Assembly (NCBI GenBank): GCA_963823655.1
Contig: CAWGMK010000006.1
Span: 256,001-320,000 of the forward strand
From: an uncultured Bacillota bacterium
Lineage (GTDB): Bacteria; Bacillota; DTU025; MWDF01
Direction: 5' to 3'
DNA: 64,000 bases
This document shows, in pieces, positions 28,708 through 59,213 of this stretch (the first letter of the stretch is position 1; the number at the start of each line of letters is the position of its first letter). The notes below the pieces were generated by a model. That model made no database searches. It had not been told where the DNA came from and saw only the letters and a program-made list of their open reading frames with translations. The position numbers and the translations under genes are program-made.

Positions 28708-29479
28708 TGACCTTTGCCGTTAAAGTTCAATATGACGGATCCCGCTACTCCGGCTTTCAACGCCAGATCAAGGGCGCTACCATCCAGGGGGAGCTTGAGA
28801 GGGCGATATCCGAGCTGACAGGCGTTCATTCGGCAGTGACCGGCTCAGGAAGGACAGATGCCGGAGTACATGCGATAGGGCAGGTCATAAGCTTCAAATC
28901 CGAATCGAGCATCCCCGCCGACAGGTGGGCGCTTGCTATGAATACAAAGCTGCCGCAGGACATAAAAGCGATATCGTCATGCCTTGTAGACGACAATTTC
29001 AATGCGAGATTCGACGCGACATCCAAGACATATAGATACCTTATACTGCCATCAAGCTCAAGCAATCCCCTTATGGGGAAATACGCTTGGGTAATCGGAG
29101 GATAACCCTGACATAGAGGCGATGAGGGAAGCTGCCAAGGAACTAGCCGGTGAACATGACTTCAGCGCTTTTAGATCCGCCGGTTCGGTGAGACAGTGAC
29201 CCGGTAAGGAACATTTCGGGGTTTTCTATAGAGGAAGGCTTCATCGAGCATCTGGGGGAACGGTCGATAATCGCTACGGTAAGCGCCAACGGGTTTCTGT
29301 ACAAGATGGTAAGGAATATGGTAGGCGCGCTAATGGAGATAGGATTGGGGAGGGCCCCTCTGCAAGGTTACATGAAACCTTCAGGGGAAAGGACAGGACA
29401 GCTTGCCCCGCCTCCGGCGCCGGGTTCCGGCCTGTATCTCATGAAAGTGGAGTACGCCTGCAAGCTGTTTGAGCAATAA
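28704..29479 (+). CDS. truA: tRNA pseudouridine 38-40 synthase, with frameshifts near 29100 and 29195 (likely errors)
   Basis: GRTDAGVHA; downstream frames give HDFSAF, ANGFLYKMVRNMVG and PGSGLYL. Confidence 0.92.
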
Positions 29480-29587: not shown

Positions 29588-31286
29588 TTACTTCGTCGGG
29601 GCTACATACTGGCTCCAGCCGCGGATGTCGCTCGTCCCGAAGTTATACTTGAATAACTTGTCGATCCATTCCGCAGGATAGCCCTTGCCGTTGACCTTTC
29701 CGTTCTCGGTAACGAAGCCCATATCATACTTCCATACTAGGTAGTCGAGCAGTCTGCCAGACTGCGTCGCGGAAAGTATCCACGGTGTCGCTGCAGAATT
29801 CGGTCAGAATAGCTACGGCAGCTGCCTTATCCTTGTTGTAAAGCTCGACTACTGCCTTCTCGAAGGCCGCCTGGTTCCTTACCAGTTCGCCTTCGTACTT
29901 GTCGCGGATCTTGCTGACGTCGGCATACATATAGGACCACTTGAGGTTCATATATGTGGAGAGTGAACCGACTGCCCAGCTGTAGGAATCCCTGGTGAAG
30001 TCGAAACGGTCGCCGCACTTCTCTATTGTATATCGAGGGGTTAAGCTCCGTTACGCCTACATACAGAGGCAGGAACCAGCCTGCATCTGCGCTGAGGGGA
30101 GTCATCCAGACGACGCCGCCGATCTCATTGGGAAGGTTGGCCCTTGTCTGCACTATGGTTACATACTCAGCACGATGTACGTTGATCGTTCTCTGCGGGG
30201 TGTACGTAATTCCATCGGCCTTGAATGTCCCCCAGAAGCGGCGGGGGTTGTTCCAGGGTCCGGCACCCAGCCCCTGGGTCATATCGAATTCCGTGCCTTC
30301 ATAATGGTCGCGCTGGATTTCCATGACCTTGGCCAACGTGACCTTCTCCTTAACCGGCGCCTGGAAGGGCAGGTTGGTGGGATCCAGCGTTGCCACCAGG
30401 TCAGGGTTGAGCAGCGTCATTATGCGCCATATGCGGCGGGCTGAGTAGTCGACCCTGAAGTTGTTCATGAAGTGCTTTCTCCAGCTGAAGGGCTCTCCGC
30501 TGTCGGCCTTGTACCAGCCCTGGAGGACTGCGTAATCCTTGATGCCGGGGGCGAACATGAACTCGTCAGCAGTTATTGAAATCTACTACGTCTGATTACC
30601 GGAGTGGTTGGTTGAGGCAGCCACATAGCCGTCTTTTACCCTCTGGGCGATCCAGAAGGCTCCGGGCTCGGCGTCTCCTACCTGCCAGAGAGGGCCTGGG
30701 CCGATTATCTCGAATACCCAGGCTTCCTTGCCGTCAACTACCGAAAGCTCCTCGCCGCCGTCGCTGTAGCCGTACTTCTCCGCCATTGAGCCCATGACCT
30801 TGATGGCCTCGCGGGCGGTTTTGCCGCGCTCCATAGCGAACATGGACAGGTTGGTGATGTCAAAATAGCCGTTCTGGTTGGCAAGCTCGCGGCGGCCGCC
30901 GATAGTGGTCTCTCCGATGCCGACCTGCCACTCATTGAGGTAGCCGAAGATCGCCGTCTTGATATAGGAATATGTCTGCTCGGCCTGGGGTATCAAGTTG
31001 CCGGTAGGCTTCAATGCGACTTCATGCGACTGGTGTCCGTTAGTGCCCTGCGGAATATAAAGCACGTCCATCATGGTACCGGGGGCGTATTTCGCAGCCG
31101 GGACCTTGTAGAACTCCCACGGGAGAAGCGCCCGAGTCGGCAGTGTGGGTAGCAATCGCAGAACCATCCGCGGTCGAACCCGGGGGCAGGGCTATTGAAG
31201 TGCATGCCATAGCACCGACGGCCGTCATAGTCATTACGAATACGACGGTTAGCGCTACAAGCATCGCTCTTGTATCTACTATTCAT
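29588..31286 (-). pseudogene. Secreted C69/secernin-like Ntn dipeptidase, copy B2; several frameshifts (real or assembly errors)
   Basis: ORF fragments 31040-31264, 30586-31167, 29827-30558 and 29724-29951 are collinear with the intact paralog 33274-34965 and share its YVAPTK end. Confidence 0.8.
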
Positions 31287-36909: not shown

Positions 36910-38584
36910 CTATTGGAGCGGATAGATGACGGCAGGATCCTTGCTTTCGACTACTTTGCGCAGCCATGCCTCAGGGTAGCTTGCGCTGGTTTTCTTACCG
37001 GTCTGCTCGTTGAACACGAAGCCTGCGTCATATTTGAACATCAGCTTGTCCAATAACTGCCACCAGGCTGCCGTTACAGCCTCTACATTGGCATTTGCGT
37101 AATCCGTAAGCATCTTTATCCCGGCGGCCTTATCCTTTGCCATGGCGTCCAGGATCGTTTTCTCTATGGCGGGTTGCAGCAACAGGGCATTGCCCTCGTA
37201 CTTGTCGATTACAGCCATTACGTCCTTGCTCATCAGGGACCACTTCAAGTCGCAATATGTGCTGACTGAAGAGATCGCCCATCTGAAGGATGTACGGGTG
37301 AAGTTCGAGTGCGCGCCTGCAGTCGGCCCGCTAACCGTCGGTGAAAGGACTGTCATTGCGGGATAGAGGGGGACGTGGCAGGTAAGGTCGGGGTTTGAAG
37401 GGCCAAACCAAATGCAGCCGAGCTCATCCGGTACGGACGCGCGGCTCTGCGTGACGAGCGAGTATTCGGTCTGGACCTGGGAGATGCCCCTCTGCCAGGA
37501 GTATGATTTGCCATCGACTTTGAAGGATGCGCCGCGGTACCTTCTGGGATCGCTCCAAGGGCCTGCGCTCAATCCCACCGTCATATCGAATGCGGTGCCT
37601 TCGTAGTGGTCCCTGTGAAGGTCCATAACGTCGCGGACTTCAAGTTTCGCTGGCGACAGGTACCGAGAAGGGCAGGTTTTTCTCGTCAAGGGTCTTGCCC
37701 AGCTCGGGGTTCACCAGACTGAATATGCGCCAGATCCTGCGGCCCGAGTATTCGGCCCTCTGGGAGTTGGTGAAATGGACCCTCCAGCTGAAGGGAAGCC
37801 CTGCTTTGGGATCATACCAGCCATTCAGGACTGCGAAGTCCACGATGCCGGGGGAGCACATGAAACCTGGCTGATTGTCCAGCTCAAGAGCGTCGATAGT
37901 TGACGCATTGCAAGTGGCTGAGATATGTCCGTCGGGCACTCTCTTGGCCACCCAATAGGCGCCGGGCTCTGCGCTTCCCTGCTGCCATAGCGGGCCGGCT
38001 CCTACGATTTCGAATGTCCAGGCTTCAGTCTCGTCGCCTACTGCGAGCATCTCGCCGCCTTCGTTGTAGCCGTACTTCACCGCAAGGCTGCCCATCACCT
38101 GTATGGCCTCCCTTGCCGTTGAAGCGCGTTGCATCGCCAGGATGGAGAGGTTCTGTATGTTGAGCCAGCCGTTGGGGCTTCTAAGCTGGGATCTGCCGCC
38201 GAATGTGGATTCGCCGATTCCAACCTGCTTGTCGTTCATAAGCCCGAAGCTGCCGCTCATGATGTAGGCATTGGTCTTTTCAACCTGGGGGATTATGTGC
38301 CCCGAGCCCTGGCCCTGGTTGCTCTTGGGGTCGCTGAACTGCACGTTGGACAGCATTTGCAGCATTACGGGAATTTCGTAATTGCTGCCTGCTGCGTATG
38401 TCTTTGCATCTACCTTGTATAGTTCCCAGGGCGCGCCGCCCGCATCGCATGTGTGCGTGACGGAAGTGCTTGCCGACGCTGAGCTCGATGCCGGCAGCAA
38501 GATCGAGGTGCATGCCAGGGAAATGGATGCGGAGGCCAACACTATTAACAGAGCTACTGCAAGGATCGCTGATCTTCTTTTCAT
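36910..38584 (-). CDS. Secreted C69-like dipeptidase, divergent copy C; one frameshift near 37660
   Basis: ORFs 37640-38584 and 36910-37689 join at LPFSVP; SLA|CTS, MNDKQVGIGEST, DHYEGT. Confidence 0.85.
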
Positions 38585-40274: not shown

Positions 40275-41601
40275 CTAGCCCCAAATCGGCCAGTTCACTA
40301 TTTCGCCGCCGAAATAGATGAGAACGAAAGCGACTGCCGTAACGAAAATCCACGGGACAATCGACCTCTTCAGGAACTGCCCGTAGGAACCCTGGTAGTT
40401 CACCGTCTGTTTCGTCATGCGGAAGATTATCGCCGTCGGAGGCAGCGCGTCGCCTAATGCCCACAGAAGGGACAGGCCCGCTATGACAAGCGGCAGTGCC
40501 TGATTGTAGCCGCGCGAGGAAAGCGTCCATACAAGCGGTATGCCAATTACGGCAGCGCCGCCGAAGCCAAGGATGCCCTCTGTTAGCGGGTTAACGACTA
40601 TCAGGCTTATTAGCATGTATTCTATCGGCAATGCGATGATCGCGAATGACACAAGGCCTCTGACGCCCGTGACGGAAAGTATCTGGATGAAGATGCCCAC
40701 GACTATCATTGTCGTCATAAGAGGCAACAGCTGTGATAGAGTGCTTTCTGCCAGCTTGAGGATATTGATCTTCGCGCTCTTAGGCGCGCAGAGCAGTGCA
40801 ACGACGTGCGCTGATAAGGAACACCAGAGGCAGCCCCAGCGTGGGTATTACGAATTTCACCAGCCTGGGTGCCATGAACAATACTACTAGCACTGCAAAA
40901 GGTATGGCCAGCCTTAAAGCATTCATGCCGTGAGGTACTTTGGGCAGCTCTTCTGCGTCGCTTTGCTCGGCCGTTTTTCTAAGCCCAAGCCATAGGGACA
41001 CGAAAAGGCCGCATGCAAGTACCGGCCATAGAAGCGGTAGCTCGAAGCCGACGTAAGGTACGCCGGTGCCGCCGCAAATCAGCATCGCCCAGATCGATAC
41101 GGGCGGGCAAACGGCCGCAAGGCCGGCCAGGAAGAATATCATGGCTGCTATCCTGTCCTTGGATACGCCGATTTTAGACAGGACGAGAGCTGCCGTGGAG
41201 CCTGCCACGAGCACTGAAACGCTGCCGGCGCCCGTTATCGCGCCCGGTATGAGCATCAATACCATGATGAGCAGCAATGCCAACGGCCTGAATTTCGAAA
41301 CGCTCAAAATCCCCTTTGCCATCAGCGTGAGTCCGCCCGACTCTTTAATGATGTTCATGAAGAATGTCGCGAAGAAGAAGATCAGAATCAGGTCTATGTA
41401 GGTAGCTGATCCTTCCGCTATATGCCTTAATGGCAACAGCAGCTCCAAGCGGTTAACATCCGGCAGGATTATCCCCCCCAGGATGGATGCCGCAATGGCG
41501 GCCACGAACATGCTCAGCTCAACGCTCAGCTTGAACTTCATGTTCGCAAGCACGTAGACTGCCACTAAGACCGCAAGGATTATCAAAGTCAAAGTGAACA
41601 T
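40275..41601 (-). CDS. DctM-like/IT-superfamily transporter permease; frameshift near 40810
   Basis: Two consecutive hydrophobic ORFs with AVCPP and GDALPPTA helical-hairpin-type motifs. Confidence 0.75.
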
Positions 41602-42579: not shown

Positions 42580-43657
42580 TTACTTGGTTACCAGGCTGTC
42601 AGGCATCATGATGGCGCGGATTAGCTTATCCAGCTGGTCAGACTCTGCTTCCATGCCCAGTTGCAGCGTGAGCTCCTCCAGCCTTTCCAGAAGGGAAAGG
42701 TTGGTAACGTCAGCGACTTCGACCGCTTTCCTGACCTCTTCGCTTGCGGCATCGGTATCTTCCAGTTCTATAAGCAGCTTTGCCTTTGCCATATATACGA
42801 AAGTATTCTTGGCATCTTTCTTAATGGCGCTTTCGAAGTACTTCTCCATATTCTTCGTGTCGCCCAGCTTTGCGTACACCTTGGCAATGCTAACGTCGAT
42901 ATATGGGTCGTTTGGCTCCGATTTTATTGCCTTCTTATAGAAATTGATGGCGTCCTCATACTTCTCCTCGGCGAAAGCTTTCCTGCCAAGCACCCTCTTG
43001 TCGAATATTTTTATATCTGAGGCTGCCTTAAGGCCTTCGAACCAGGCCTTGGAGACATTTATCTCGTTGTCGATCTCAAGAGTGGTCCTAATAAAGTCCT
43101 TTGCCTCTTCGTATACCAGGCTGGGAGAAGTCTTCAACCCTCTCGTTGTATTCGGCAAGGACCTGATCTTCCGTGACCTCGGGGATAACCCATTGTGTCA
43201 GCGGATAGTTGTCGACAGTGTAAATATCTTCCATATATTTTCTGAAGGATTCTTCCGTAAAACCCCAAGAAGATAGGAATGCTTCCCAGACAGCCTGAGA
43301 ACCGGCTTGCTCGATTTGAGCCTTCAAGGATGCATCGATCTCAGCCGGGTCTGCCTTATAGCCCTTCTTGGCCGCATCGTTGAGCACTATCTTCTGCTCT
43401 ACGAGGACGTCCATAACCGATACCCTGAGATCATCAAGGTTATCGTCCGTTATCTGCTGAGTCCCGCCAATCTGCTCATAGTAGTTCTTGATTTCCCTCT
43501 CAAGCTCAAAAAGATAGATCTGACTGCCGTCGATATCGGCAACTACCGTCATACCGGGATCCTTCTGGCTGTCCAGAATGATGAAAGCCAGGATGCCGGC
43601 CACAATTACAAATAGCGCTATCCAGCGGAAGTACCGGAATTTCGAAGTTTTGGCCAC
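42580..43657 (-). CDS. Membrane-anchored SurA N-terminal-like domain plus TPR repeats; frameshift near 43110
   Basis: TM segment, VADIDGSQI and LVEQKIVLNDA (SurA_N-like), then TPR helices YEDAINFYKKAIKSEPND. Confidence 0.65.
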
Positions 43658-43939
43658 TGTCTTACCTCCATGATGTGTGTTTTCGCCCATTACATGCCAT
43701 AACTCAACTTGCCCGCGTAAACAGGCAGATGACAACCTCATGAGCGTTAGTAGTATAATAATACCATCGTTAAAGGGTACCTGTTGAATTATGTTAAGGA
43801 CAAGAGCAAAATATCTGCACGTGAATCGGCGGCGAGAATTTCGGAAAACTCAGGCTCATATCTATCGAGAAGATACTTTGCAGGAACCCAACCTGACCTG
43901 TTTGACGTTTAAAGACCAAATGAACGATTCGGAGGCAAA

Positions 43940-45024
43940 ATGGCAAAAAGGTTTCTATTATTAGTATTTCTTACTGCTTGCGATGTCTTTGCCTTTCAGC
44001 TCAACCGCATCCGCACGGGAGGGCTGGACGATTGGTTTCGAAGCGCTAGTTGATCACAGCTTGCTTCCGGGAGGAGGCATTGCCATAGCGACTGGCAACA
44101 AGGTCGTGTCTTTGGACAAGAATGGCAACAAGCAATGGGAATGGCAGGCGGCAGGGCCGATCAGGCAAATAACATCGGATGATACAGGCAATGTGTTCGC
44201 AGCGTTCGGGACTGCAGCTAGTTAAGCTGGACGGCAATGGCAGAATAGTGTGGTCTGCGGATACAATGCATGCGGTATATTCGTTAGAGTATGCTTCCGG
44301 AGGGATAGTCGCTGCAGGATATGAGTATGGTGTGCTGGCCTTCGATGAAAGCGGCGAAAATATCTGGGAGCATTACGCAAACGAGGAGTGCGACACCTGA
44401 CAACCCAAGATACCGGGGCCGGTCAGGCTCCTTCATTACTTGGGTACATACAGGCTGTCTGATATTGGGCGAGGTTTTTGAGGTCGGAAGCGCTGACAGG
44501 ACAGACGGAATTGACTATATAAATATTGTAGACATCAGGGATGGATGGACGGACCAGCAGTTCGAAGCCGTAAAGCCCTTCGAGATAAGGGCGGTTGAGG
44601 TGCTTGGCCCTGAGAGCATACTGGCGGCCGTCGACTATTCGGGGCTAGTCAGATGGAATACACAGGATATGTACGGAACCGACTGGGCATATAAGATGGC
44701 GCCGCCGAAATACATAAGCAGCGGCCCGACTGACAGGGCGCTGACTGTGGATTTCAATGGTTCGTTCAATTGTGCTGATGGATACTAAAAACGGTCTGCC
44801 GGTGATATCCGGCAAGCTGGCGTGAGCCTGCGATAGGAAAGCCCGTATGGAATGACGGATACTATTACATACCGATAGAAGGGGCCGTTATCGGTCTGGA
44901 CCTGAAATTGTCGAAATCATTCAGGATGGATGCAAAGGGTATCGAGGTAGCCGCCGAGATTGCGTTTGGCGAGGATGGCCTTTATGTAATGGACACGGAC
45001 ACACTGATTAAGATATCTCTATAA
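43940..45024 (+). CDS. Secreted PQQ-like beta-propeller protein with an in-frame CDT-UGA (possible Sec); several frameshifts
   Basis: GGAGG SD; repeats LDKNGNKQWEW, LDGNGRIVWS, FDESGENIWEH; fragments continue to ...LIKISL stop. Confidence 0.55.
44398..44446 (+). promoter_or_regulatory. Candidate bacterial SECIS element after the UGA
   Basis: Outer ACCCAAG/CTTGGGT stem, inner GGGGCC/GGCTCC stem, GGTCA loop starting 21 nt after the TGA. Confidence 0.5.
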
Positions 45025-45043: not shown

Positions 45044-46102
45044 ATGAACTGCATCTTAGGAAAAAGGCGTTCTTTATTGATTTTGGCGGCGGTCATTGCA
45101 TTAGCTTTGGGCAGTGCTTCTGCCTTCGCGTCCGAACCTGTGAACCTTAGTACCAAGGACCGCTGACCAGATACCTGTGATAAGCGGGGCCTATGAGGAT
45201 GAAGCCGAGGCTAAGAAACTGCTGGCTTCCTATATGCCCGAACACAATGTCATAGGGAAACTGAGAAACAAGACCATCAAGGTACTTATTCGTGGATATG
45301 GTAGTTGACGACGTTACCAGGTGGTATGAGAAGGCGCTAGGGTATCCTTCCGTTACTTTGGAGGAGCTTAGCGTAGGGGAAGGCATTGGCCTGGGGGGGA
45401 AAGCCCCATGTACTACTGGTACGAATACTACATGTTCCCTGATACGAATGCATATGATGAGCAAGGCAAACTAATATGGCCGGGAGAGTTCATTACCAAG
45501 TCACTGGCCGAGAGCCGCCGCACATGGATGAGGGGCGCAATACTCCAGACAGCCAATTACGGCTGGTTCTTCAAGGACATGGAGAACTCAGTGACCGACT
45601 GCATGCTGGTATTACGGATGCGGGATTCGACTTCCAGAATATGACATATTCGAAGAAGACGGCAATAATTCTATCCTGGGAGACATATGAGCCTTTCAAG
45701 GAAGAGGATTACGTCGAGCCGGATGAAGACCCGGAAATGGCTGCATACATGAAGGACGTGGAGGAATTCGCGCAGATGCTTCTGGATGATCCTCCTACTC
45801 CCAAAATGCTTGATCTGCCGATAAATGATGCTATGCTTTTCGACCCCTTCACAACTGCAATGTATATGATGGAGGGCGATCCGATGTTTGCCTTCTTCTG
45901 GGATATCGAGCCGGAAGAAGCGGTAAAACTCTACTCGGCGGAGCTTATGCTTAAACCTGAAGAATATGAAGGCGGGTGGGTCTTCGTATTCTCCGGAAGG
46001 CTTCCGTATCCGATGCACGCCTTATATATCTACCCTAACGATATTCCCGGAGTGCCTTTCAAGACCTTGATTTTCATACGCAAAGAAGCAGTGACCAGAT
46101 AA
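45044..46102 (+). pseudogene. Secreted acidic hypothetical protein, fragmented by multiple frameshifts
   Basis: Signal peptide ending AFA|SE; successive overlapping ORF fragments to 46102. Confidence 0.5.
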
Positions 46103-47519
46103 CAGACGAAAAGACTATACCTGCCATGGGAGGTTCACCTTCCCATGGCAGGTTTTTTTTATTCGGCAAAGGCAGGTCCTTTAGGGATTCGGCGACCTGC
46201 TCTTCTGAGTATTCCAGGTCGGGAAGCTGGCCTTTTATATATTTCTCATATGCTGTCAGGTCGAAATGCCCGTGGCCGGATAGGCAGAACACTATGGTCT
46301 TGCTGATTCCTTCCTTCTTGCAGATTTCGGCCTGCCGTATGGCCTCCGCTATGGCGTGCGAGGATTCTGGCGCAGGCACTATGCATTCGGTCCTGGAGAA
46401 AAGCTCAGCCGCCTTGAACGTCTCGCTCTGAGGGATATTAGTGGCCTCGATGAGCCCGTCGTGGTAAAGCTTCGCGATTATCGGAGATGTCCCATGGAAG
46501 CGCAGGCCTCCTGCGTGGATTGAAGATGGCACGAAATTGTGCCCCAGCGTATACATCTTCACAACGGGTGCCATTCCGGCCGTATCGCCGTAATCGTACG
46601 CGTACTTGCCTTTGCACAAGCTAGGGCAAGCGGCGGGTTCGACGGCTATAAGCCTAAGCTTTCCCGAGGATGCCATGCTGTCTTTCAAGAAGGGGAGCGC
46701 AATGCCGCCGAAATTGCTCCCGCCTCCGCAGCAGCCGATAATGATGTCCGGCGTGTCTCCCGCGATTTCTAGCTGCCTTCTCGTCTCAAGGCCTATTACG
46801 CTCTGGTGGAGCAGAACATGGTTTAGTACGCTTCCTAGTGCATAGTTTGCGTCCGGCATTCCAAGGGCCGCCTCAACCGCCTCGCTGATTGCCATGCCCA
46901 AGCTGCCAGGAGAATCAGGGAACTTCTTGAGAATCGCCCTTCCTGCCTCGGTTGTGTCGGACGGGCTGGGCGTAACTTCCGCGCCCCACAGGTTCATCAA
47001 TATCCTTCGATAGGGCTTCTGCTCATAGCTTGTCCTGACCATGTACACTTTGCACCCGAGGCCCATCATATTGCACGCAAGAGCCAGCGAACAGCCCCAT
47101 TGGCCGGCGCCTGTCTCAGTTGTCAGGGTCTTAATGCCGGCGAGCTTGTTGTAATATGCCTGAGGAATGGCTGTATTGGGCTTGTGGCTTCCCGTCGGGC
47201 TTACGCTCTCGTTTTTGAAGTAGATCTTGGCCGGCGTATCAAGGGCTTTTTCGAGCCTTCTGGCCCTGACGAGCGGGGTGGGCCTCCATATGGACAGAGC
47301 CTCTCTCACCTCTTCGGGAATCTCGATCCAGCGCTCAAGGCTAGCCTCCTGCCTGATTAGCTCCATGGGGAAAATCGAAAGAAGGTCCTCAGGCACAAGC
47401 GGTTTCAGGGTTCGCGGGTTCAGGGGAGGATCCAAGGGTTGTGGCATGTCTGCCTGTACGTTATACCAAGCTTTGGGTATGTCCTCTTTGTTAAGCAGTA
47501 TCCTGTCGTCTTTTTGCAT
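46074..47519 (-). CDS. trpB2: Tryptophan synthase beta, type 2 (TrpB2); true 3' end probably near 46160
   Basis: PTGSHKPNTA, TETGAGQWG, YALGSVLNHV, PAPESSHA; no trpA nearby. Confidence 0.93.
   Translation of the reverse strand: MQKDDRILLNKEDIPKAWYNVQADMPQPLDPPLNPRTLKPLVPEDLLSIFPMELIRQEASLERWIEIPEEVREALSIWRPTPLVRARRLEKALDTPAKIYFKNESVSPTGSHKPNTAIPQAYYNKLAGIKTLTTETGAGQWGCSLALACNMMGLGCKVYMVRTSYEQKPYRRILMNLWGAEVTPSPSDTTEAGRAILKKFPDSPGSLGMAISEAVEAALGMPDANYALGSVLNHVLLHQSVIGLETRRQLEIAGDTPDIIIGCCGGGSNFGGIALPFLKDSMASSGKLRLIAVEPAACPSLCKGKYAYDYGDTAGMAPVVKMYTLGHNFVPSSIHAGGLRFHGTSPIIAKLYHDGLIEATNIPQSETFKAAELFSRTECIVPAPESSHAIAEAIRQAEICKKEGISKTIVFCLSGHGHFDLTAYEKYIKGQLPDLEYSEEQVAESLKDLPLPNKKNLPWEGEPPMAGIVFSSVIWSLLLCV
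46119..46160. terminator. Intrinsic terminator between convergent genes
   Basis: ACCTGCCATGGGA/TCCCATGGCAGGT stem followed by a T-tract. Confidence 0.85.
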
Positions 47520-47542
47520 TCCATTCACCCCTTATCATTTCT

Positions 47543-48793
47543 TTAGTTGCTGTAACTGCTGATCAAAAGCCCTTCTATGGGTTTTGGATGGAAACACGTC
47601 GTTTTTTCAGGCATTAGCCTTCCGGACAAGGCCGCCTCGAACACCTGTCGCGCCGTCGGAGGCACAGTAAAGAATGCAATCTGGCTATAGCCGCTTTCAA
47701 CAGCCCTGATGCAAGCTTCCATGGAAGGTGTGAAGTTGACCCTTGCCCTGACTATGTTGCCTTGGCCTTCGTCTTTCAGGAAGGGAAGGCGCCCGAACTC
47801 AAGGTGCCTTGCGAGCAAGTCCTCATGCAGGACCTCAGAGGAACACTTTCCACGAGGCAGCCTGAAAACCAGGCTGATAAAGCCCGTTTCCGAGGAATAG
47901 GCCCCAAATACTGCGCTGCCGGGAGAAGCACTCTTCAGGCAGGCTCTGAGGGATTCTGCATTGCTGTGCCGCTTAATAATGAAATCCTCTTGGATCAGCC
48001 CCGGAAGTTTAAGCAACAAGGAAGGGGGGATGCCCTTCAAATGCCTGTGGAACGGCCTTACCTGAATCCCCACGGAATCCATAGGGAAAAGGCAGGAGAG
48101 AACCCCGGTGCCTGCTCTTTGCCCATTCTGGACGGCCTCTTTTGCAGCTTCAAACCTGTGGTGGCCGTCAGCTATCACGACTGTCTTCTCGGCCATGATG
48201 GTTTTCAGTTGCGCTATTGCGCCATCTTCTATCCTGCATAGCGAATGAGTATTTCCATCAGGATCAGAAAACTCGATCACAATTCTGCAGGACGAACAGG
48301 ATAGTAAACTGAGTACTTTCGAATCCCTGTCCTCGAAAAGGCCGAAGACGGCACTCAAGTCAGAGTTGGTGCTTGCTGAAAGGTTGGCCCACTGACGCAC
48401 GGCATCGGGGAAGGTCCGCTCGTGCGGCAGCACTTTTCCCTCCCCATAGGCCGAGGCTTCGACTAGGCAGTAGAAACCGATCCTGCTGCGCATCTGCCCT
48501 TCTTCATCTGCATACGAGAGCGTATATCGATACATTGCCCGAGCTTTATCCGGCTTCAGAATGCCATCCTTGAGCATTTCATCCAGCAGCCTTCGAGAGG
48601 ACAGGAAATCCGGCTTGCCTTCCTTGTCCTTCATCGGCCTTAAAACCCTAACGATGTTATTGCGCGAACCGGCCGCAAGTTTGGCACGCATTTCGCTGTT
48701 AACTTCGCTAAGGCAAGGGGATACAAGCTTGCTTATGTCTCCGGCCCTTTTGGCGTCGTAGAATATGCCGTTGAACATCGATATGTTGGCCAA
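47543..48793 (-). CDS. DUF1015-family protein (ParB/Srx-like core)
   Basis: VLPHERT, IADGHHR, MPEKTTCFHPKPIEGL; AGGAGG SD with TTG start. Confidence 0.85.
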   Translation of the reverse strand: MANISMFNGIFYDAKRAGDISKLVSPCLSEVNSEMRAKLAAGSRNNIVRVLRPMKDKEGKPDFLSSRRLLDEMLKDGILKPDKARAMYRYTLSYADEEGQMRSRIGFYCLVEASAYGEGKVLPHERTFPDAVRQWANLSASTNSDLSAVFGLFEDRDSKVLSLLSCSSCRIVIEFSDPDGNTHSLCRIEDGAIAQLKTIMAEKTVVIADGHHRFEAAKEAVQNGQRAGTGVLSCLFPMDSVGIQVRPFHRHLKGIPPSLLLKLPGLIQEDFIIKRHSNAESLRACLKSASPGSAVFGAYSSETGFISLVFRLPRGKCSSEVLHEDLLARHLEFGRLPFLKDEGQGNIVRARVNFTPSMEACIRAVESGYSQIAFFTVPPTARQVFEAALSGRLMPEKTTCFHPKPIEGLLISSYSN

Positions 48794-50210: not shown

Positions 50211-50942
50211 CTAGTCTTTCAGGCCTAGCGCCTTGGCTATGAGGCTGTTTGATGAGGCCCTTCCCTCGACACCTGGCAATAGCTTCAAGACGACATGCGC
50301 AGGCCTTGCCGAAAGCACATATACTACATCGGAAAGGTAGGACGCCTCGTCGATGTCGTGAGTTGTCATCAGCATAGTAAGGCCCAGTTCGGCCTTCACT
50401 TCCAGCAGCCATTGCTGCATCGATTTCCTCGTTAGCGCATCCAGCGCGCCGAAGGGCTCGTCTAAAAGCAGGAAGCGCCTCTTCTGCATAACGGTTCTAA
50501 GCAGTGCGACTCTCTGCTTCATGCCCCCGGAAAGATCACTGGGGTAGTAGTTCTCGAATCCCTGAAGGCCGAAGATAGGCATGAGGCGCAGCGCCTCCTC
50601 CTTTGCAGCATCCAGATCCCCTCCTGAAAGCTCAGCTGCCAGCACTGCATTGCCAAGCGCAGTCCGCCAGGGGAGAAGCAAGTCCTTCTGCGGCATGTAA
50701 GAGGGAGGCGAGGACAGCTCGAACCGGCCGGATCTCGGCTTGAGCCTTCCGGTAAATATTGAAAAGAGGGTGCTCTTCCCGCAGCCGGAGGGGCCCAGAA
50801 TGCTTACGAAGCTTCCTTCCGGGACCTCAAGGCTTATTGCGTCAAGTACCGGGACATGGCCCTGTTTTCGGCTCTTATAGGCGAAGCTGAGCGCGTCCGC
50901 TTTCAGCATTGGAGTAGATCCGGTACTTTCGGTCATTGTCAT
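50211..50942 (-). CDS. ABC transporter ATPase (ThiZ-like)
   Basis: GPSGCGKST, YMPQKDLLLPW, LLDEPFGALD. Confidence 0.9.
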   Translation of the reverse strand: MTMTESTGSTPMLKADALSFAYKSRKQGHVPVLDAISLEVPEGSFVSILGPSGCGKSTLFSIFTGRLKPRSGRFELSSPPSYMPQKDLLLPWRTALGNAVLAAELSGGDLDAAKEEALRLMPIFGLQGFENYYPSDLSGGMKQRVALLRTVMQKRRFLLLDEPFGALDALTRKSMQQWLLEVKAELGLTMLMTTHDIDEASYLSDVVYVLSARPAHVVLKLLPGVEGRASSNSLIAKALGLKD

Positions 50943-50951
50943 GGCAGCAGC

Positions 50952-51905
50952 TCATTGGTAGAAGAACTTGGAGCTGTCCTGCCCGGCTTTTACTAGGCCA
51001 TGCGATCCCATCCACTCGTAGAGCCCCTTCCAGACAGAGGCCTTCTGTAGGCCCCAGGATGAGGCATCCTCAATGTATCTTGGCGAAAGCCATTCCTGGC
51101 TCTTCGTGGCAAGCTCTTTGTCTATCTCGGGGGAGCGCTTTATGAGAATCCTGGCGGCCTCCGCGGGGTTGTTTGCAGCATATGTATAACCTTTGGATGT
51201 CGCTGCCATGAAGGCCTTTGCCAACCCGGATTCCTTTTCTATAAACCTGGCCGATGAGATTATTATCGGTGCGTAGTAATCAGGTATTGCCGGCACGTCC
51301 CTCAGCATGATTGCGGAGATGTCCATGCCCCTCAGCTTAGCCTCGATGCCCTGCCAGCCCATATATATCCAGACGATGTCGACATCCCTGCCCAGTATCG
51401 CAAGCAGGTCCGCAGTTCCGATCACTAGCTCCTTGAGCCTGCTCGGGTCTCCGCCGTCCGACTTGACTACATCACCTATCATTGCCTGCTCAAGAGGCAG
51501 CCCCCAGCTGGCGTAGGTCTTGCCCTGGAAATCCCGCGGCCTTGTTATGTTCGACTTCTTCAAACTGGCGTAAGCAGTCGTATTATGCTGAATGACAGCG
51601 GCTACGGAAACAATAGGGAGCCCTTCGGCCATTGCGGCCGTGGCCCATTCCTGTGAGCTTATGCCGAAATCAACCTTGCCTGCGGCAACAAGCTGCTCTA
51701 GGGCAAGCCCCTGGCTCTGCTCCATAATTTCGACTTCGATGCCGGCCTCCTTGTAGAAGCCCTTCTCCAGGGCCACGAACAATCCGGTGTGATTGGTGTT
51801 CGGGACCCAGTCGAGCAAAATGCTTACTTTAGGCGCCGCTACGGCCTGCGCCGTGATAAGCGCGAAAACCGCCAGCAGGGCTGCCGACAATATTGCCCTT
51901 TTCAT
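50952..51905 (-). CDS. NMT1/THI5-like substrate-binding protein (ThiY-like); last codons possibly frameshifted
   Basis: LDWVPNTNHTG; signal peptide; alternate frame gives a TNELLP end. Confidence 0.88.
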   Translation of the reverse strand: MKRAILSAALLAVFALITAQAVAAPKVSILLDWVPNTNHTGLFVALEKGFYKEAGIEVEIMEQSQGLALEQLVAAGKVDFGISSQEWATAAMAEGLPIVSVAAVIQHNTTAYASLKKSNITRPRDFQGKTYASWGLPLEQAMIGDVVKSDGGDPSRLKELVIGTADLLAILGRDVDIVWIYMGWQGIEAKLRGMDISAIMLRDVPAIPDYYAPIIISSARFIEKESGLAKAFMAATSKGYTYAANNPAEAARILIKRSPEIDKELATKSQEWLSPRYIEDASSWGLQKASVWKGLYEWMGSHGLVKAGQDSSKFFYQ

Positions 51906-52681
51906 TTCTCTACCTCCCAGATATCGCTTTCATGCTGGTAGTACCAAGGCGAAAGCCTTCTTGATACGTAATTGACAAGGCTGAACAGGCCCATGCTGAG
52001 GATCGTTATTATCACAAGCACAGCGAATACCCTGTCGGTCCTGAAGGAGTGGGATGATCTCGTAAGATATACTCCAAGGCCCTTTTGCGATCCCATCCAT
52101 TCGGAAACCACTGTGGCGATGATTGCATATGTGGCCGACACCCGAATGCCGGTGAAGATATGCGGCAGCGCCGCAGGCCAGCGGAGCTTCCAGAACAGCT
52201 TTGAAGGCTTCGCATCCATGCCTTTTGCCATTTCCACAAGCTCGGAATCCACTGAGGAAAGGCCGTCGACCACACCAACGCTGATGGGGAAGAAGCATGC
52301 CAGCACCACCAGGAGCACTTTGGGAAGGGTGCCGAAACCGAACCAAAGTATCAGAAGGGGCGCCACGACAATCGTCGGCAGGCTCTGGGATGCAACGAGC
52401 GCAGGATATAGCGTGCTTCTAAGAAAACCGGAGGAGAAGACCATATAGCCCAAAGCAAGGCCTGCTACAAGAGAGGCCGCCATGCCAAGTGCCGCCGCTC
52501 CCAGCGTTGCCAGAGTATGCTGCATAAGAAGCGGGGCCGTTTCGTAGAGCGCCGCGAAGACGGCCGATGGTGCGGGGAAAATCCACGGCTCTATCGCGAA
52601 GGCCCTCACAACAGCCTCGACTGCCAGTATTAAGAGCAAGGCCGCCAACATCGGCCTTACCTTAGAGCGAAGCTTATCCAC
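51902..52681 (-). CDS. ABC permease (ThiX-like)
   Basis: APLLILWFGFG, EW.GS.KGLG; GTG start overlapping the upstream stop. Confidence 0.88.
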   Translation of the reverse strand: MDKLRSKVRPMLAALLLILAVEAVVRAFAIEPWIFPAPSAVFAALYETAPLLMQHTLATLGAAALGMAASLVAGLALGYMVFSSGFLRSTLYPALVASQSLPTIVVAPLLILWFGFGTLPKVLLVVLACFFPISVGVVDGLSSVDSELVEMAKGMDAKPSKLFWKLRWPAALPHIFTGIRVSATYAIIATVVSEWMGSQKGLGVYLTRSSHSFRTDRVFAVLVIITILSMGLFSLVNYVSRRLSPWYYQHESDIWEVEK

Positions 52682-52970
52682 GGTGCTTGGACACCTTCTC
52701 ATCCATCGTGGAGGGTATGTCGGACTCAGCCAACTTGATATAGGTAATGACAGACCCTATGCCTGCATCCTTGACGGCCCTGTGGGCCTTGTAGGCCGTT
52801 GCCCAAAGGAGATCAAGTTCCCCCTCCATTGTCGTTTCGAAAGGCCCGACTTCATACTTCACGCCGGAGCTTTTTATCACTTCTATTGCCTTGTCTACTG
52901 CTTTGTAAACATCCTCTTTCGCCCCTGCGTTAAGGGGCAGGACTTGTATAGCCAGGCTACCATTACGCAT
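52674..52970 (-). CDS. Thiamine-binding protein (YkoF/MTH1187 family)
   Basis: SGVKYEVGPFETTMEG. Confidence 0.85.
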   Translation of the reverse strand: MRNGSLAIQVLPLNAGAKEDVYKAVDKAIEVIKSSGVKYEVGPFETTMEGELDLLWATAYKAHRAVKDAGIGSVITYIKLAESDIPSTMDEKVSKHRG

Positions 52971-53160: not shown

Positions 53161-55816
53161 CTAGGGCATTGCCATGTAAAGCACACCGTGGTCAACGGCT
53201 GCAAGCCTCTCCTCCGAGCCAAGCTCGATTACTATCACATCCGAATAGCCCATGAAAAGGGCCCTTGCCGCTGATGCCTTCACTAGCCCCTTTTCGTTCT
53301 CGTCCCTCATATCCTGCAAGGGGGGGGACCCTGCCTTTGACCTCTGTTTCAGACCGTCGACTTCGATGATCAAAATGCCGGATTTGCCCGGTATGGTGCA
53401 GGCTTCAAACAGCTTCTGCCATTGGCCTATGCCGTTTGCATATGCGCTGCCGCCTGTTGCGTCCAGGCGGAGCACTGATGCCTTGCCGGGCACGGCAGCA
53501 GGGCCGTAATCGGCAACAATTCCTGCTTCCATGCTCATATCTACTTCGTCAGCGGGGGAGTAGGCGATATGCTGTGGAAGTGAGGCCTCCTTTAAAAAAG
53601 GCAACTTAGAAATTCGCCCTTCAGCCGGTATGGCTGCCAGGTCGTCAAGGTAGACAGTGCCTTCGCTTGCCATGTCGTCTTTGAATTCCACGAGGTATAT
53701 CTGCTCGATTGTAAAGGGCCCGCCTTCTGCGGGAAGCGATGCCTTGTATTCGTTCCATCCTGTGCCGGCAAGCCTTCCGAAATCGAGGAAATGCCTAGTG
53801 TCGGCCGCGTCACGGACATTCGCCCTCAGCCAATGGCCGGATGCAAAGTCGGCGTTCGCCATTATGCCAAGCGCCGTTGCCGTTGCCGGTATGAGTATCC
53901 TTGCCGACGGTTTCGCGTATGCGGCCCTGACGCCCGTGCCGGCGAAGTCGTAGGCAAGCCCCATGGCGCTTCTGCCGTCCGCATTTGCAAAAGACATACC
54001 CTTCAAACTTGTTTCGGGAGAGCCGTACGAAGTCCACAGCGAAGGGTCATCCATGGCATCCAAAATCAGGGCTTCGTCGAGGCTGTCGAAGAGCGTATCG
54101 GGCAGAAAGCTTCCAAGCAGAGCGTCCTCGAAGTATATCTCTATTGACTCGATGTTGCCGGAGAGATTCTATTACCGCCTGCGGAAGAAGGGGGGCGGGC
54201 AGCTCAAAAGGGCCGCTCTCGGTGATTACTCGCATGCGAAGCCCGGCGGAAGGCAGGGGTATTTCCCTTCCCTTGTGGTCGAATGCTTGGATGCCGAGGC
54301 TTAAGCCGATGTCCGATTTGAGCGCCGAAGCCAGGGTGACTCTAACAGGCTTTCCGGTTGCCAACAGCCTGTATGTTGTCTCAATGCCGTTAAATTCCGA
54401 CTTCAGCTCGATATATCCTTCGGAGACGACAGTGAGGCCCGGGGTTTCGGGAAGCTGTACAAGGTTGCCATGTGCTACCGGCAAGTCCGAAAACGCATCG
54501 GCTTCCGTCGCGAAATATAAATGCGTGCCGACTGTTACAATGGGCAGCTCTCCGATCAACCCCTCATATGCAGCACCGGGTTCTCCAAGCTGTCCCGCTG
54601 CCGGTACATCGAAAGCAGGCCCAAAAGCGGGAGCGGCGGTCAAAACCGGGAATGTCGTGGCCTGCCTGCCGTCAATCGCCTTAATACCCACCGAATAGCT
54701 GACCTTCCTGTCGGCACCGCCTGTTCCTAGCAGCTTGTATGCAGATTGGCCGTCAGATGCGGCGGCTTGGGTGGACCCGCCACCGTCCAGGTTCAGGGCG
54801 TCCCTGCAACCGAGGTCCATCATGAGCTGCGCGGCCTCATCCAGCGTAACGCCTCTCGAATCAAGGCTTCTCCCCTCGACGGCAACGAGCAGCAGCCTGC
54901 CGTCCCAGGTGATGCCAGCCATTGTCCGGGGTGCCCTGAGCGCGCCCGATATGCTGGTGAAACTCGAAAGGTTCTTCTGCTTCAAGCCATCCTTTACGAG
55001 TACCGGCTTTCCGGAGAAGGCAGATTCCATAGGAAACGGGGGGAAGAGGTTGAACTCCAGCCGGATGGAGTCCCCCAAGGCTAAATCCAATAGCCCGTTC
55101 ACCATGGAACCGGTCGTAATCAGCTCATAGTCGAAAGGCAGCGACAGTGCGCTCTTGTCATCGGGTATGCCTGTTAGGCCGGTCTTGAACAACGCGATGA
55201 TTGTGTTGCCTTTGATGAGCGCTACAACCGCCTTGGCCGGATATTTCCTTTCCGATCTCAGAGCGTTGAATAGGACCGCATCGGAGCTACCGACTGAAAG
55301 CTCGTTATATGAGGAGATATCTATGTTCCCCCCATCCGGGCGCACCAAACGGGCAGACCAGCTGAATTTCTCAATGTACGCCGAACCTGCTCCCGGTATG
55401 CAAAGCGTCGCGAAGTCCGCGTCCTTCCTGGGGGATCTAATGAGTGAGCCGTCGGAGACAACCATGGAAAGGGGCATTCCGGAGGCGGTATCGAAGAAAT
55501 CGCCGTTGACGGCGGCAAGCAGCCCTTTTGACCTTAGTGTGTCTATTACGCTGGAAGGCTCATCCATAAAAGCGCCGGCATTGAACGGGCCGACGTAGAA
55601 ATCCCCGGTCGTTGTATCAACTGAGATTACGCAGTATCTGAGCCATCCGGATTTTGAAAGCTCGGTCACAGAGGCAATATCAAGCCCCGGCAGCTGCCTG
55701 TATGATGATTCAAAGGCCAGTATGCCCGGCCTTTGTGCGAAGGCTGTGCCTGATAGCGCAAAGACGAGGGATAATATCAGCGCCAAGCCGAAGCCTCTAA
55801 TTGTGGAATACTTCAT
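53161..55816 (-). CDS. Secreted phosphodiester glycosidase (NAGPA-like) family protein; frameshift near 54100
   Basis: AAVNGDFF, PRTMAG and ALNLDGGGST; C-terminal part lies in ORF 53161-54063. Confidence 0.8.
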
Positions 55817-55878
55817 GGAACACGCCCCTATACTAGATGTAAGATAATTGTAGTTAATCCGAAGCCGGAGGTGTACCC

Positions 55879-57450
55879 ATGGCAAGGCTTTTTTTAAGAA
55901 ACGGCAGAATATTCCTCGGAAGGCCGGGAGCGGGATTCGCTGAGGCCGCCGCAATCGCGGGGCGCAGGGTCCTTGCAGTCGGCAAGGAAGAAGATGTGGC
56001 GGGCATTGCCTCGGGCTTTGAGGAAGTGGACCTTGCCGGAGGCGTTGCTGTACCTGCCTTCTGCGACTCGCACATCCATCTGTTGATGTATGCATTAAGC
56101 TTAGCCACTGTTCAACTTTCGGGCTCAAATAGCCAGGAGGAGGCGGCGGGGCGCGTAGCGGCCAGGGCGCAAATCGCGCGGCCCGGTTCCTGGATTACCG
56201 GTATAGGCTGGTCAAAAGAGGAGTTCAAAAACAGGCAGTTCCCGACCAAGGCCCCACTTGACCTGGTGTCTCCTCAAAACCCGGTTGCGCTATATAGCAG
56301 GGATTATCATTCGCTTTGGCTGAACAGCGTGGCTCTTTCCCAGCTTGGCATAGATAAAAATACAGCTGATGTCCAAGGGGGTTCCATCCTAAGAGGTGAC
56401 GACGGCGAGCCTAGCGGGGTCCTGCTTGAGTACGCCGCGAAGATGGCATATGATCTTATACCCAAGCAATCGGCTTCCAGCTGCTTAGGCGCCCTTGATG
56501 CCGCTTTCGGCAAGCTTTACTCGCTTGGAATACTTACAGTACACAATATGGACTCGGATGGGGATATGTCCCTGCTCTCCGATTTAAAGGCGCAAGGAAG
56601 GCTCGGGGTAAGAGCCGTAGGCTATATCGGCAGGGAGGCTCTCGAGGGGGCGATCTCCGCCGGGCTGCATTCTGGAGCCGGGGACTCGCGCCTTAAATTC
56701 GGCGGCTTGAAGCTTATCAAGGATGGCACGCTAGGCTCTCAGACAGCGATGATGCTCGAGCCATTCGAGGGCGGATTTAACAGGGGAATCGAATTGCTGC
56801 CCGACGATGAGTTGAACTCCCTTATATCCAGGGCCAACAATTCAGGCATAGGAGCCGCCGTGCATGCGATAGGCGATGGTGCGAACCGCAGCGTCCTGGA
56901 CGCATTCTCCAGATCCGGCAAACAGGACAGGGCCCTGGCCAACAGGATCGAGCATGTCCAGCTTCTAAGCGAGGAGGACATGCCAAGGCCGGCAGCGCTA
57001 GGACTGGCTTGCTCGATGCAGCCGGTTCACATGGACGGGGACATCGCCCCGGCGTCTCTTCTATGGGCCGACAGGTGCAAATACGCATTTGCCATGAGAA
57101 GCCTTGCAAGAAGCGGCTCACCCTTGCTTTTGGGCTCGGACGCTCCCGTAGCCGACCCTGACCCGTTGAAGGGCATCTGCTCGGCAGTAACTAGGAAAGG
57201 CCCTGATGGAAAGCCGGAGCGGGGATGGTATCCGGATGAGAGGATCAGTGTAGAGGAGGCTGTCAGGTCCTATACATGGAACCCTGCCGCGCTTTTCGGA
57301 GATGAAAAGAACCTTGGAAGCATAGAAGCCGGCAAGATCGCAGACATCGCAATTCTTTCGGAGGATATTTTCTCGATCCCTAAGGAGAGAATTAGAAAGG
57401 CCAGGGTGGCAGGGACGATAATGGAAGGGGAATTCGTTTACCGGGTTTAA
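55879..57450 (+). CDS. Amidohydrolase-3 family protein (YtcJ-like)
   Basis: DSHIH, HAIGD, RIEHVQ, GSDAPV, GSIEAGKIAD. Confidence 0.92.
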   Translation: MARLFLRNGRIFLGRPGAGFAEAAAIAGRRVLAVGKEEDVAGIASGFEEVDLAGGVAVPAFCDSHIHLLMYALSLATVQLSGSNSQEEAAGRVAARAQIARPGSWITGIGWSKEEFKNRQFPTKAPLDLVSPQNPVALYSRDYHSLWLNSVALSQLGIDKNTADVQGGSILRGDDGEPSGVLLEYAAKMAYDLIPKQSASSCLGALDAAFGKLYSLGILTVHNMDSDGDMSLLSDLKAQGRLGVRAVGYIGREALEGAISAGLHSGAGDSRLKFGGLKLIKDGTLGSQTAMMLEPFEGGFNRGIELLPDDELNSLISRANNSGIGAAVHAIGDGANRSVLDAFSRSGKQDRALANRIEHVQLLSEEDMPRPAALGLACSMQPVHMDGDIAPASLLWADRCKYAFAMRSLARSGSPLLLGSDAPVADPDPLKGICSAVTRKGPDGKPERGWYPDERISVEEAVRSYTWNPAALFGDEKNLGSIEAGKIADIAILSEDIFSIPKERIRKARVAGTIMEGEFVYRV

Positions 57451-57640: not shown

Positions 57641-59213
57641 TTGCTGGCATTGAAGCTTACTGACATCGACTTCTCATACGGATCCAGAAAGATCATAAAG
57701 CTCGGCTCGCTGTCGATTTACGATGGAGAGAGAATCGGCCTGATAGGGCCCAACGGATGCGGAAAAAGCACACTGCTGGACATTATCGCAGGCAGAGTTG
57801 ACGTTTCGCCGGGCAGCGCCCAGCGCTTCTTGGATATTTCCTACTGCGACCAGGCGGGAAGCCCAAAGCTTCGCCCTTCCGCCAGATTGCTTTCCATTTT
57901 CAAAGCCCAAGAAGGCCTGATAAACCCGAGCGGAGGGGAGCGGATGCGCTATAAGCTCGCGTCTGCGTTCACGCCCGGCAAAGGGATACTGATCCTCGAT
58001 GAACCTACCACAAACCTGGACCTGGATGGCATCCTCCAGCTCAGAGACGAAATCTTTGAATGGGATGGGCCCGTTCTGCTTGTGACCCACGACGCAGCAC
58101 TTCTTTCCGAGACTTGCGAAAGGACGCTGTCCATAAGGGATCGCAGGCTGGAAGATTTCCCTGGAGGATACGATGAGTGGGTCTTGGACAGGCGCCTTCG
58201 TGAGAAAAGCCGGATAAATGAGTATGATGAGTATCTAAGGCAGAAAAGGCACCTGCTTGGGGCATTCAGGCAGGCCCAGTCCTCTTCGAAACAGGTGAAA
58301 ACAACGCCATCCAGGATGGGCAACTCGGAGGCGAGGCTGCATAAAGCTGAGGCAAGGGAGAGCTCCGAGAAACTGGCAAAGAAGGCCGCAGCCATATTGT
58401 CGCGGCTTGCAAGGCTGAAGGCCGTAAGCAGGCCAAAGCCGGACAGAGAGCTTACCATGGCTTTTGCGAAACCCTCAGACAGCCTGCCCAGATTTGCGGC
58501 CATAGCGAAGGAAATCGGGCTGAACGCCGGTAAGAGAAGCCTTCTTGATGCGGCCTCCTTCGACCTGCCTACCGGCTCTAAGACATGCCTGTTGGGGCCG
58601 AACGGGTGCGGCAAGACAAGCCTGTTGAATAAAATCGCGGAGTTGTCCGAGGGGATCGTGTCCAAAGGTGTTAAATGCTCATTGATGCGTCAGGACCTTT
58701 CGAACCTTTCTGAAGCCCATTCTGCTCTTGAGAATGTAATGATGACTTCGAAAAGAACAGAGCCATTCATAAGGACCGTGCTGGCAGGCCTTCGAATAAC
58801 GGGCGATATGGTGCACACGCCAGTAGGCAGCCATGTCCGGGGGAGAGAGGATGAAAGTTGAGCTTGCCAGGTTGATGATGTCAGAAGCCGACATGCTGCT
58901 ACTCGACGAGCCTTCCAATCACATGGACATAGAATCATGCGGAGCACTGGGTGAAGTGTTGCGCGCCTGGCCCGGCACACTGCTGATGGCGACACATGAC
59001 AGGGCGCTGATAGATGCCGTTTCCGATAGGATTATTATCTGGCAGGGAACGAAGCTTCTTACTTATGAGGGAAACTACTCCGATTACATGTCATCCACAA
59101 ACGATAAGCTTGATATAGTGGCCCTGGCGGAGGGGATGAAACGCGCTGACGATGCTTCTAAACGCAACGGGCCGATATTGGATACAGCCGGTTGCAGGAG
59201 TTTTGATGAATGA
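57641..59213 (+). CDS. ABC-F ATPase, ARE-type (Vga/Msr/CplR-like) ribosomal protection candidate; frameshift near 58833
   Basis: Two ABC domains, no TM segments, long linker with RMGNSEARLHK. Confidence 0.8.

Follow-up and report, generated by a model that had tools for sequence, protein, structure and literature searches.

The 2026 review of prokaryotic selenoproteins tabulates 119 families and subfamilies (PMC13188914, Table 1), among which several exported proteins are predicted to carry one selenocysteine (Sec, U) and a cysteine (Cys) at the spacing of a C-x-x-U or U-x-x-C motif. They include the FCYXU TonB-dependent receptor (NF049945) and the DsbA-like, DsbG-like and BtuF proteins, which were predicted from an in-frame TGA together with a bacterial selenocysteine insertion sequence (bSECIS; PMC13188914). 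In its consensus form (the bSECISearch model), such an element is a stem-loop within the coding region just past the UGA and has a small apical loop that opens with a G followed by G or U, and the published rules specify a loop of 3-9 nucleotides (nt), a stem of 4-16 bp, a G in the first two loop positions, a distance of 16-37 nt from the UGA and a minimum free energy (MFE) of -7.5 kcal/mol or lower (PMC13188914, Fig. 2 legend). Other families, described by Haft and co-workers (10.1101/2022.07.06.499078), were found through truncated database entries, i.e. proteins cut near a Cys whose C-terminus is regained by reading through a TGA. They were accepted once the UGA had been aligned with Cys in non-selenoprotein homologues. 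Exported selenoproteins, C-x-x-U motifs and SECIS hairpins in coding regions are therefore not new in themselves. The subject of this study is a beta-propeller gene at 43940..45024 (+) of a 64,000-nt stretch of DNA (hereafter the window) from an uncultured Bacillota bacterium (assembly GCA_963823655.1, contig CAWGMK010000006.1, positions 256,001 to 320,000), which an earlier note, made from the sequence alone, had put forward as a candidate selenoprotein. The analysis presented here supports that interpretation, and we consider it probable, with fairly good confidence, that the locus belongs to an undescribed family of exported C-x-x-U selenoproteins, of which the new elements would be the scaffold and an apparent near-absence of Cys forms.

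The candidate Sec codon is the TGA at 44398-44400, the last of the four codons TGC GAC ACC TGA (44389..44400, +) that would encode the C-x-x-U motif. It stands directly after ...WEHYANEECDT in the propeller frame, and the six-frame reading agrees with the earlier note that this frame remains open beyond it, in this case for 26 codons (QPKIPGPVRLLHYLGTYRLSDIGRGF) until the next stop. One orthologous locus only, L001, was obtained from a profile scan of genome contigs with a 3-sequence alignment; it lies on JAKQNF010000004.1, a contig of an independent metagenome-assembled genome (MAG) labelled Bacillota bacterium, of which 12.6 kb were compared. The propeller gene of L001 is an unbroken frame of 360 codons that contains one TGA (...WEHYAQEECDT-TGA-VPKAPGPVR...), located at the same codon as that of the window and preceded, as there, by TGC GAC ACC. 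The earlier note had cautioned that the TGA might result from the indels of this gene, a caveat that is lifted by an unbroken orthologue with the same TGA. It had also proposed to look for homology flanking the codon at either end, and an ungapped tblastn match does span it (window 44215-44478 against residues 93-180 of the L001 protein, 52% identity over 88 residues). We also considered a frame shift shortly upstream that would leave the TGA out of frame, since frame 0 includes a stretch resembling blade 1, and rejected it: the homologues keep the frame-1 reading ...PGPVR..YLG... past the TGA.

The conservation between the two propeller genes is highest around this codon. The propeller genes are 43% identical over 260 aligned codons, compared with 63-92% for the flanking genes, and the best-conserved 45 nt of the whole gene are those surrounding the TGA (38/45 nt, versus 54% over the 260 codons). 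At residues 156-163, the codon is identical for all seven conserved residues, versus 32 of 83 elsewhere (Fisher p = 0.002, for a range picked after seeing the data). As for the genetic code in use, TGA is the terminal codon of 9 of the 25 confident window genes, and rpoC and other long genes are open under the standard code; the frequent use of TGA as a terminal codon indicates that the genome is not recoded and that TGA is an ordinary stop in it.

Database relatives break at the same place. When window 44420-44785 was searched against 1.84 billion representatives with HMMER, 19 proteins matched, one of which (P0017, 2137 amino acids (aa), six short matches) was dropped as an unrelated repeat protein. 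Among the 18 family proteins that were kept, 17 are C-terminal halves of 170-210 aa. Mapped on L001, their first residues lie 1 to 37 residues beyond the U position (within 5 in six cases), and none extends upstream; the sole full-length member is P0007 (342 aa). For the N-terminal half of L001, a word-index search returned two proteins, P0022 and P0023 (99% and 65% identical), both of which end in ...EECDT, while the C-terminal halves P0003 (99% identical to L001) and P0024 (69%) begin at the codon after the TGA. This codon is GTG in L001, which explains why the gene caller started there. P0001, which is 92-94% identical to the window, starts 14 codons past the TGA, at the first in-frame start codon that the window offers. 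No longer relatives of the C-terminal half were found in the word-index search, and a word-index search with the 18-sequence profile gave 4 matches, all of them C-terminal halves, with no full-length form; tblastn found no match for P0003 in plasmids. As read from these alignments, the stop did not arise as an artefact in the window but is inherited in the family, where it can be followed to the residue in three or more lineages.

The region just past the TGA can fold into the two-part hairpin with a GGUCA loop 21 nt downstream that the earlier note had described. In our folds, the upper part is a 6-bp stem (44415-44420 paired with 44426-44431) closed by the apical loop GGUCA (44421-44425). 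This stem-loop (44415..44431, +) is obtained for both the window and L001, with energies of -10.2 and -10.5 kcal/mol, respectively, and the MFE values of the two folds are -20.7 and -18.1 kcal/mol. The loop begins 21 nt after the A of the TGA, which corresponds to a 20-nt spacing. The hairpin follows all four published bSECIS rules, with a 5-nt loop that opens with GG, a 6-bp stem and this distance from the UGA, and both MFE values lie below the limit of -7.5 kcal/mol. Two of the six stem pairs differ between the window and L001 as GC/GU and are still paired. In a 53-nt window fold, the energy corresponds to z = -3.46, with none of 200 shuffles as good. The SECIS loop of E. coli fdhF contains GGUC. 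The lower stem (44403-44409 paired with 44439-44445), which completes the extended hairpin at 44403..44445 (+) in the window fold, is recovered neither in the MFE fold of L001 nor in the consensus fold, so that conservation is confined to the upper stem-loop, the candidate SECIS.

Read through the TGA, the two halves are predicted to make up one protein. The read-through protein of L001 matches Pfam PQQ_2 (PF13360) with 41.7 bits and P0007 with 29.8 bits (cut-off 27.6); the fragments of the window copy score 18.8 bits and stay under this cut-off. AlphaFold2 models the L001 read-through protein (predicted local distance difference test score (pLDDT) 88.8, predicted template modelling score 0.86) as one eight-bladed propeller of 32 strands, whose top matches among solved structures are designed eight-bladed propellers and BamB (template modelling score about 0.66-0.72 at full length, 13-17% identity to BamB). 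Residues 1-24 are disordered in the model (pLDDT below 50) and resemble a signal peptide by eye; the N-terminus of the window protein is likewise hydrophobic and then reads ...STASA, and those of L001 and P0023 are comparable, the signal peptide of the propeller being in all cases a by-eye assignment. The C-x-x-U motif corresponds to residues 151-154 of L001 and lies in a loop between strands 141-146 and 157-169 (pLDDT about 70-82). A cut at residue 154 would split the fourth blade, and the 200 residues on its C-terminal side would lack an export signal.

The fold places the protein near BamB and other PQQ_2 proteins, with which it shares an eight-bladed propeller of about 340 residues and an export signal. 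It differs from BamB in its score against the BamB equivalog model TIGR03300 (14.8 bits, cut-off 285.2), in having no lipobox discernible by eye in L001 or P0023, and in its host, a Bacillota MAG. It is not a pyrroloquinoline quinone (PQQ)-dependent dehydrogenase either, PQQ_2 being the sole Pfam match of the L001 protein, and it is presumably too short for a quinoprotein dehydrogenase. P0007 was found only in generic PQQ_2/BamB-like clusters of the protein atlas.

Several observations weigh against reading the TGA as Sec. One HMMER search with the C-terminal half and three word-index searches found Cys at the Sec position in none of the 18 family proteins. According to the deep-Sep paper (PMC12013277), almost all selenoproteins have homologues with Cys in place of Sec. 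Such Cys/Sec pairs are the usual criterion for accepting a selenoprotein, which makes the lack of a Cys homologue the main weakness of the case; of the two alignments that the earlier note had envisaged for this codon, that with a conserved TGA is found in L001 and that with Cys is not found among these 18 proteins. P0007 aligns a tryptophan (Trp) and a two-residue gap with the x-x-TGA place, the upstream Cys being kept, and this Trp could be genuine, encoded by TGG, or stem from a TGA that was read under a different code. Neither selA, selB, selC nor selD was seen in the 64-kb window (42 open reading frames (ORFs) scanned) or in the 12.6 kb of L001, and no tRNA genes were seen there; the EF-Tu of the window matches the selB model below its cut-off. 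In L001, the GTG right after the TGA is accompanied by an AGGAGG 15 nt before the TGA, a possible restart signal.

The hairpin itself also has points against it. None of its six pairs shows a compensatory change between the two DNA sequences, a sample in which an informative one could hardly be expected, a 73-nt window fold has z = -1.12 (26 of 200 shuffles as good), and the L001 fold has z = -1.05 (35 of 200). Among the 1964 TGA triplets of the window, 29 (1.5%) precede an uninterrupted hairpin of the same geometry that is at least as stable, and at this chance rate the hairpin alone is weak evidence. No Rfam match was obtained at gathering or E-value thresholds over the whole window, with chance-level non-SECIS matches or none around the TGA. 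Furthermore, the residues PGPVR encoded by the hairpin are kept in P0007, so that constraint on the protein explains some of the conservation of nucleotides. Finally, the five frame changes of the window propeller raise the possibility that this copy is dead.

These frame changes are best considered together with the alternative that fares best, in which the selenoprotein family is real, the window propeller and the gene downstream of it are decaying pseudogenes, and the frame changes are genuine; we regard this as less likely than not. The window gene consists of six frame pieces separated by five single-base frame changes (six-frame reading, tblastn), where the earlier note had counted four or five other indels, and its frame order, from tblastn with the L001 protein and P0001, is 3>1>2>3>1 after a start in frame 2. 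The first change (frame 2 to 0, about 43965-43985) falls within the start codon and signal-peptide region (43940..44018, +), and the second (frame 0 to 1) at 44207..44215 (+), where the tblastn pieces stop at 44207 and resume at 44215. The third (frame 1 to 2; 44452..44459, +) is delimited by the tblastn pieces and consists of one extra base relative to L001, whose DNA alignment has a gap opposite window base ~44457, in GGCTGTCTG. The earlier note was thus right that a single extra base separates the TGA-bearing piece from the next one, and misplaced it in the GGG run at 44467-44469. The last two changes were located by tblastn with P0001, namely frame 2 to 0 at 44761..44766 (+), just downstream of 101 residues with 94% identity, and frame 0 to 1 at 44822..44824 (+).

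Decay would account for the way the disruptions cluster: relative to L001, there are five in the propeller and four in the next downstream gene, i.e. within 2.15 kb, versus one each in two other neighbours and none in the eight further shared genes. The rpoB, rpoC, fusA and tuf genes are intact, and the GC content falls to 0.47-0.51 at the locus. On the other hand, all five disruptions of the propeller are frame changes, with no substitution to a stop besides the conserved TGA, and those that can be resolved in the alignments look like single extra bases, partly by eye. A pattern of three single-base insertions within about 35 nt, as expected of consensus errors, is seen in a C69 dipeptidase paralogue of the window, and housekeeping-type genes (truA, ABC-F) also look split. 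The frame of P0001, which is 92-94% identical, is unbroken at two of the sites. The TGA, the Cys of the C-x-x-U motif and the hairpin are all intact in the window, whether the frame changes are errors or decay. The five extra frame changes are therefore most likely insertion-type consensus errors in the assembly, and in nature the copy of the window is probably an intact gene, here poorly assembled.

A second alternative takes the TGA for a true stop and the family for two natural genes, of which the first would encode an exported N-terminal polypeptide of about 153 residues and the second, from a start of its own, a C-terminal one of about 200, with or without assembly of the two. The database entries could be read in this way, the halves being called as separate proteins in 17 of the 18 family matches and in both N-terminal ones, and so could the possible restart in L001, the missing Cys homologue and the lack of Sec genes in the DNA compared. 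However, the called starts wander over the 37 residues past the stop. In the window, there is no in-frame start codon for 14 codons past the TGA, yet this stretch is conserved as protein (12 of 18 residues match L001), and the sequence upstream of the first in-frame start, a TTG, is pyrimidine-rich and without a ribosome-binding site. Both DNAs have TGA as the stop, with the same hairpin after it. The main argument is that the two halves model as a single eight-bladed propeller cut inside blade 4, and that the C-terminal half has no signal peptide of its own by eye, the only one being in the N-terminal half, so that a separately made C-terminal half would not be expected to be exported. Taken as a whole, a pair of separate genes is improbable.

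It is more improbable still that the TGA is read through without Sec, by a near-cognate Trp or Cys tRNA or a local suppressor, with the hairpin as a mere stimulator. The Trp aligned with the TGA in P0007, the only full-length relative, would suit such read-through, as would the failure to see either Sec machinery in the DNA compared or a Cys homologue. Against it stand the Cys three residues upstream, which gives the classic C-x-x-U spacing, a loop that starts with GG at SECIS distance, and the normal use of TGA as a stop in the genes of the window; besides, the Trp of P0007 may stem from a gene call made under a code in which TGA is Trp. Lastly, that the TGA is a sequencing artefact of an error-prone stretch, as the number of frame changes in the same gene might suggest, is refuted by its occurrence in the identical 12-nt context of the unbroken L001 gene and by database fragments of other origin that break at the same residue, and we give this explanation next to no weight.

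Under the selenoprotein interpretation, SelB with Sec-tRNA would bind the 6-bp stem and GGUCA loop inside the coding sequence, and the UGA would be read as Sec. The full-length product would have about 360 residues with an N-terminal signal peptide and, according to the predicted fold, would be exported as a single eight-bladed BamB/PQQ_2-like propeller. With its C-x-x-U motif in the loop between two strands of blade 4, it could form a selenenylsulfide redox centre or a metal-binding centre outside the cytoplasm. Its likely partners would be the secreted protein of unknown family encoded in the same orientation 19 nt downstream and the SurA-like protein with tetratricopeptide repeats (TPR) encoded divergently upstream. 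We lean, with modest confidence, towards a broader view, in which the family is widespread, overlooked, nearly always Sec-containing and present in the databases only as halves, with an extracytoplasmic selenium redox or metal site served by a SurA-like chaperone and a secreted partner, and in which it would be the first beta-propeller selenoprotein.

Compared with the described exported selenoproteins (NF049945, DsbA-like, DsbG-like and BtuF), the propeller would be similar in being exported, in having one Sec with a Cys at the same spacing, and in being predicted from an in-frame TGA and a bSECIS. It belongs to another fold and family, and those proteins have Cys homologues, whereas none of the 18 propeller proteins has Cys at this place. 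The resemblance to the families found through truncated entries lies in proteins that are cut near a Cys and regain their C-terminus by TGA read-through (10.1101/2022.07.06.499078); for the acceptance of those families, the UGA was aligned with Cys in non-selenoprotein homologues, and on this point the propeller fails so far. Propellers and PQQ are mentioned in none of the main texts of PMC13188914, BSepDB, deep-Sep and SelCysML, no BamB or PQQ_2 protein is listed as a selenoprotein, and literature searches for a propeller, BamB or PQQ selenoprotein gave nothing relevant, the families of Haft and Tolstoy 2025 being covered via Table 1 of the review only. The earlier note had not recognized the combination from known selenoprotein families, and it is indeed absent from the 119-family catalogue; no NCBIfam selenoprotein model matches the propeller protein.

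If the interpretation is true, the finding would add a selenoprotein family on a BamB/PQQ_2-like beta-propeller, a scaffold absent from the 119 listed families and subfamilies, and one of the few that seem to be almost without a Cys form. About 17 of its 18 database representatives would then be mis-annotated half-proteins, and the family would offer an entry to extracytoplasmic selenium chemistry in Bacillota. It would be a new family within a well-understood recoding system rather than a new mechanism. As regards the approach, the recoding site was located from the way database proteins are truncated and did not require a Cys/Sec pair, which is the filter of most pipelines.

The gene order around the propeller is common to L001 and the window, and comprises the divergent SurA-like/TPR gene, the propeller, a 19-nt gap, the gene of unknown family, rplM and rpsI. 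The downstream gene (45044..46102, +) lies in frames 2>3>1>3>2 with four frame changes in the window and encodes a protein with a hydrophobic N-terminus; its orthologue in L001 is intact (353 codons) and also starts 19 nt past the propeller, with which the gene is probably co-transcribed. No Pfam or NCBIfam family was found for this protein, a sequence search of the PDB gave only NosL at E = 0.21, and its single-sequence model is uninformative (pLDDT 33.6). The divergent neighbour (42580..43741, -) has a SurA-like N-terminal domain and TPR repeats, with one frame change at about 43133; the orthologue in L001 is an intact protein of 359 aa matching Pfam SurA_N_3 and TPR_19. One frame change relative to L001 was also found at 40281-41142 (-), in the homologue of a 287-aa L001 gene. 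Before rplM, the window has a gene for a TrpB-like pyridoxal phosphate enzyme and a 416-codon ORF without a family (46074-48793, -), both of which are absent at that place in L001.

Elsewhere in the window, five C69-family dipeptidase paralogues stand in tandem at 29.8-38.6 kb (-). The one at 29827-31167 (-) has two consecutive in-frame TAG codons at 30583-30588 and, when its DNA is aligned with three of its tandem paralogues, three single-base insertions within about 35 nt, which look like a local consensus error in this alignment. The match of the truA gene (28704-29105) to its profile covers the first half only, and a C69 peptidase (36913-38584) and the ABC-F ATPase (57641-59213) are each split into two overlapping ORFs, all of which adds to the signs of indels in the window. 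The long ORFs at 54047-56128 (-) and 55879-57450 (+) lie on opposite strands and overlap by about 250 nt; the former has no family and the latter only weak amidohydrolase-type matches, and one of them may be spurious or frame-shifted. The three ATP-binding cassette (ABC) transporter genes at 50211-52702 (-) have below-cut-off matches to the models of the selenoprotein-associated SaoA, SaoX and SaoP, and were judged to be generic relatives of the sulfonate/taurine type and not evidence of Sec use. A scan for other selenoprotein candidates in the window, which covered 48 TGAs flanked by open frames, found nothing indicating Sec use. The single strong hairpin among them follows the real stop of the ABC-F gene at 59211 (+) by 18 nt; it is GC-rich, with 11 bp and -21.2 kcal/mol, and is probably a terminator.

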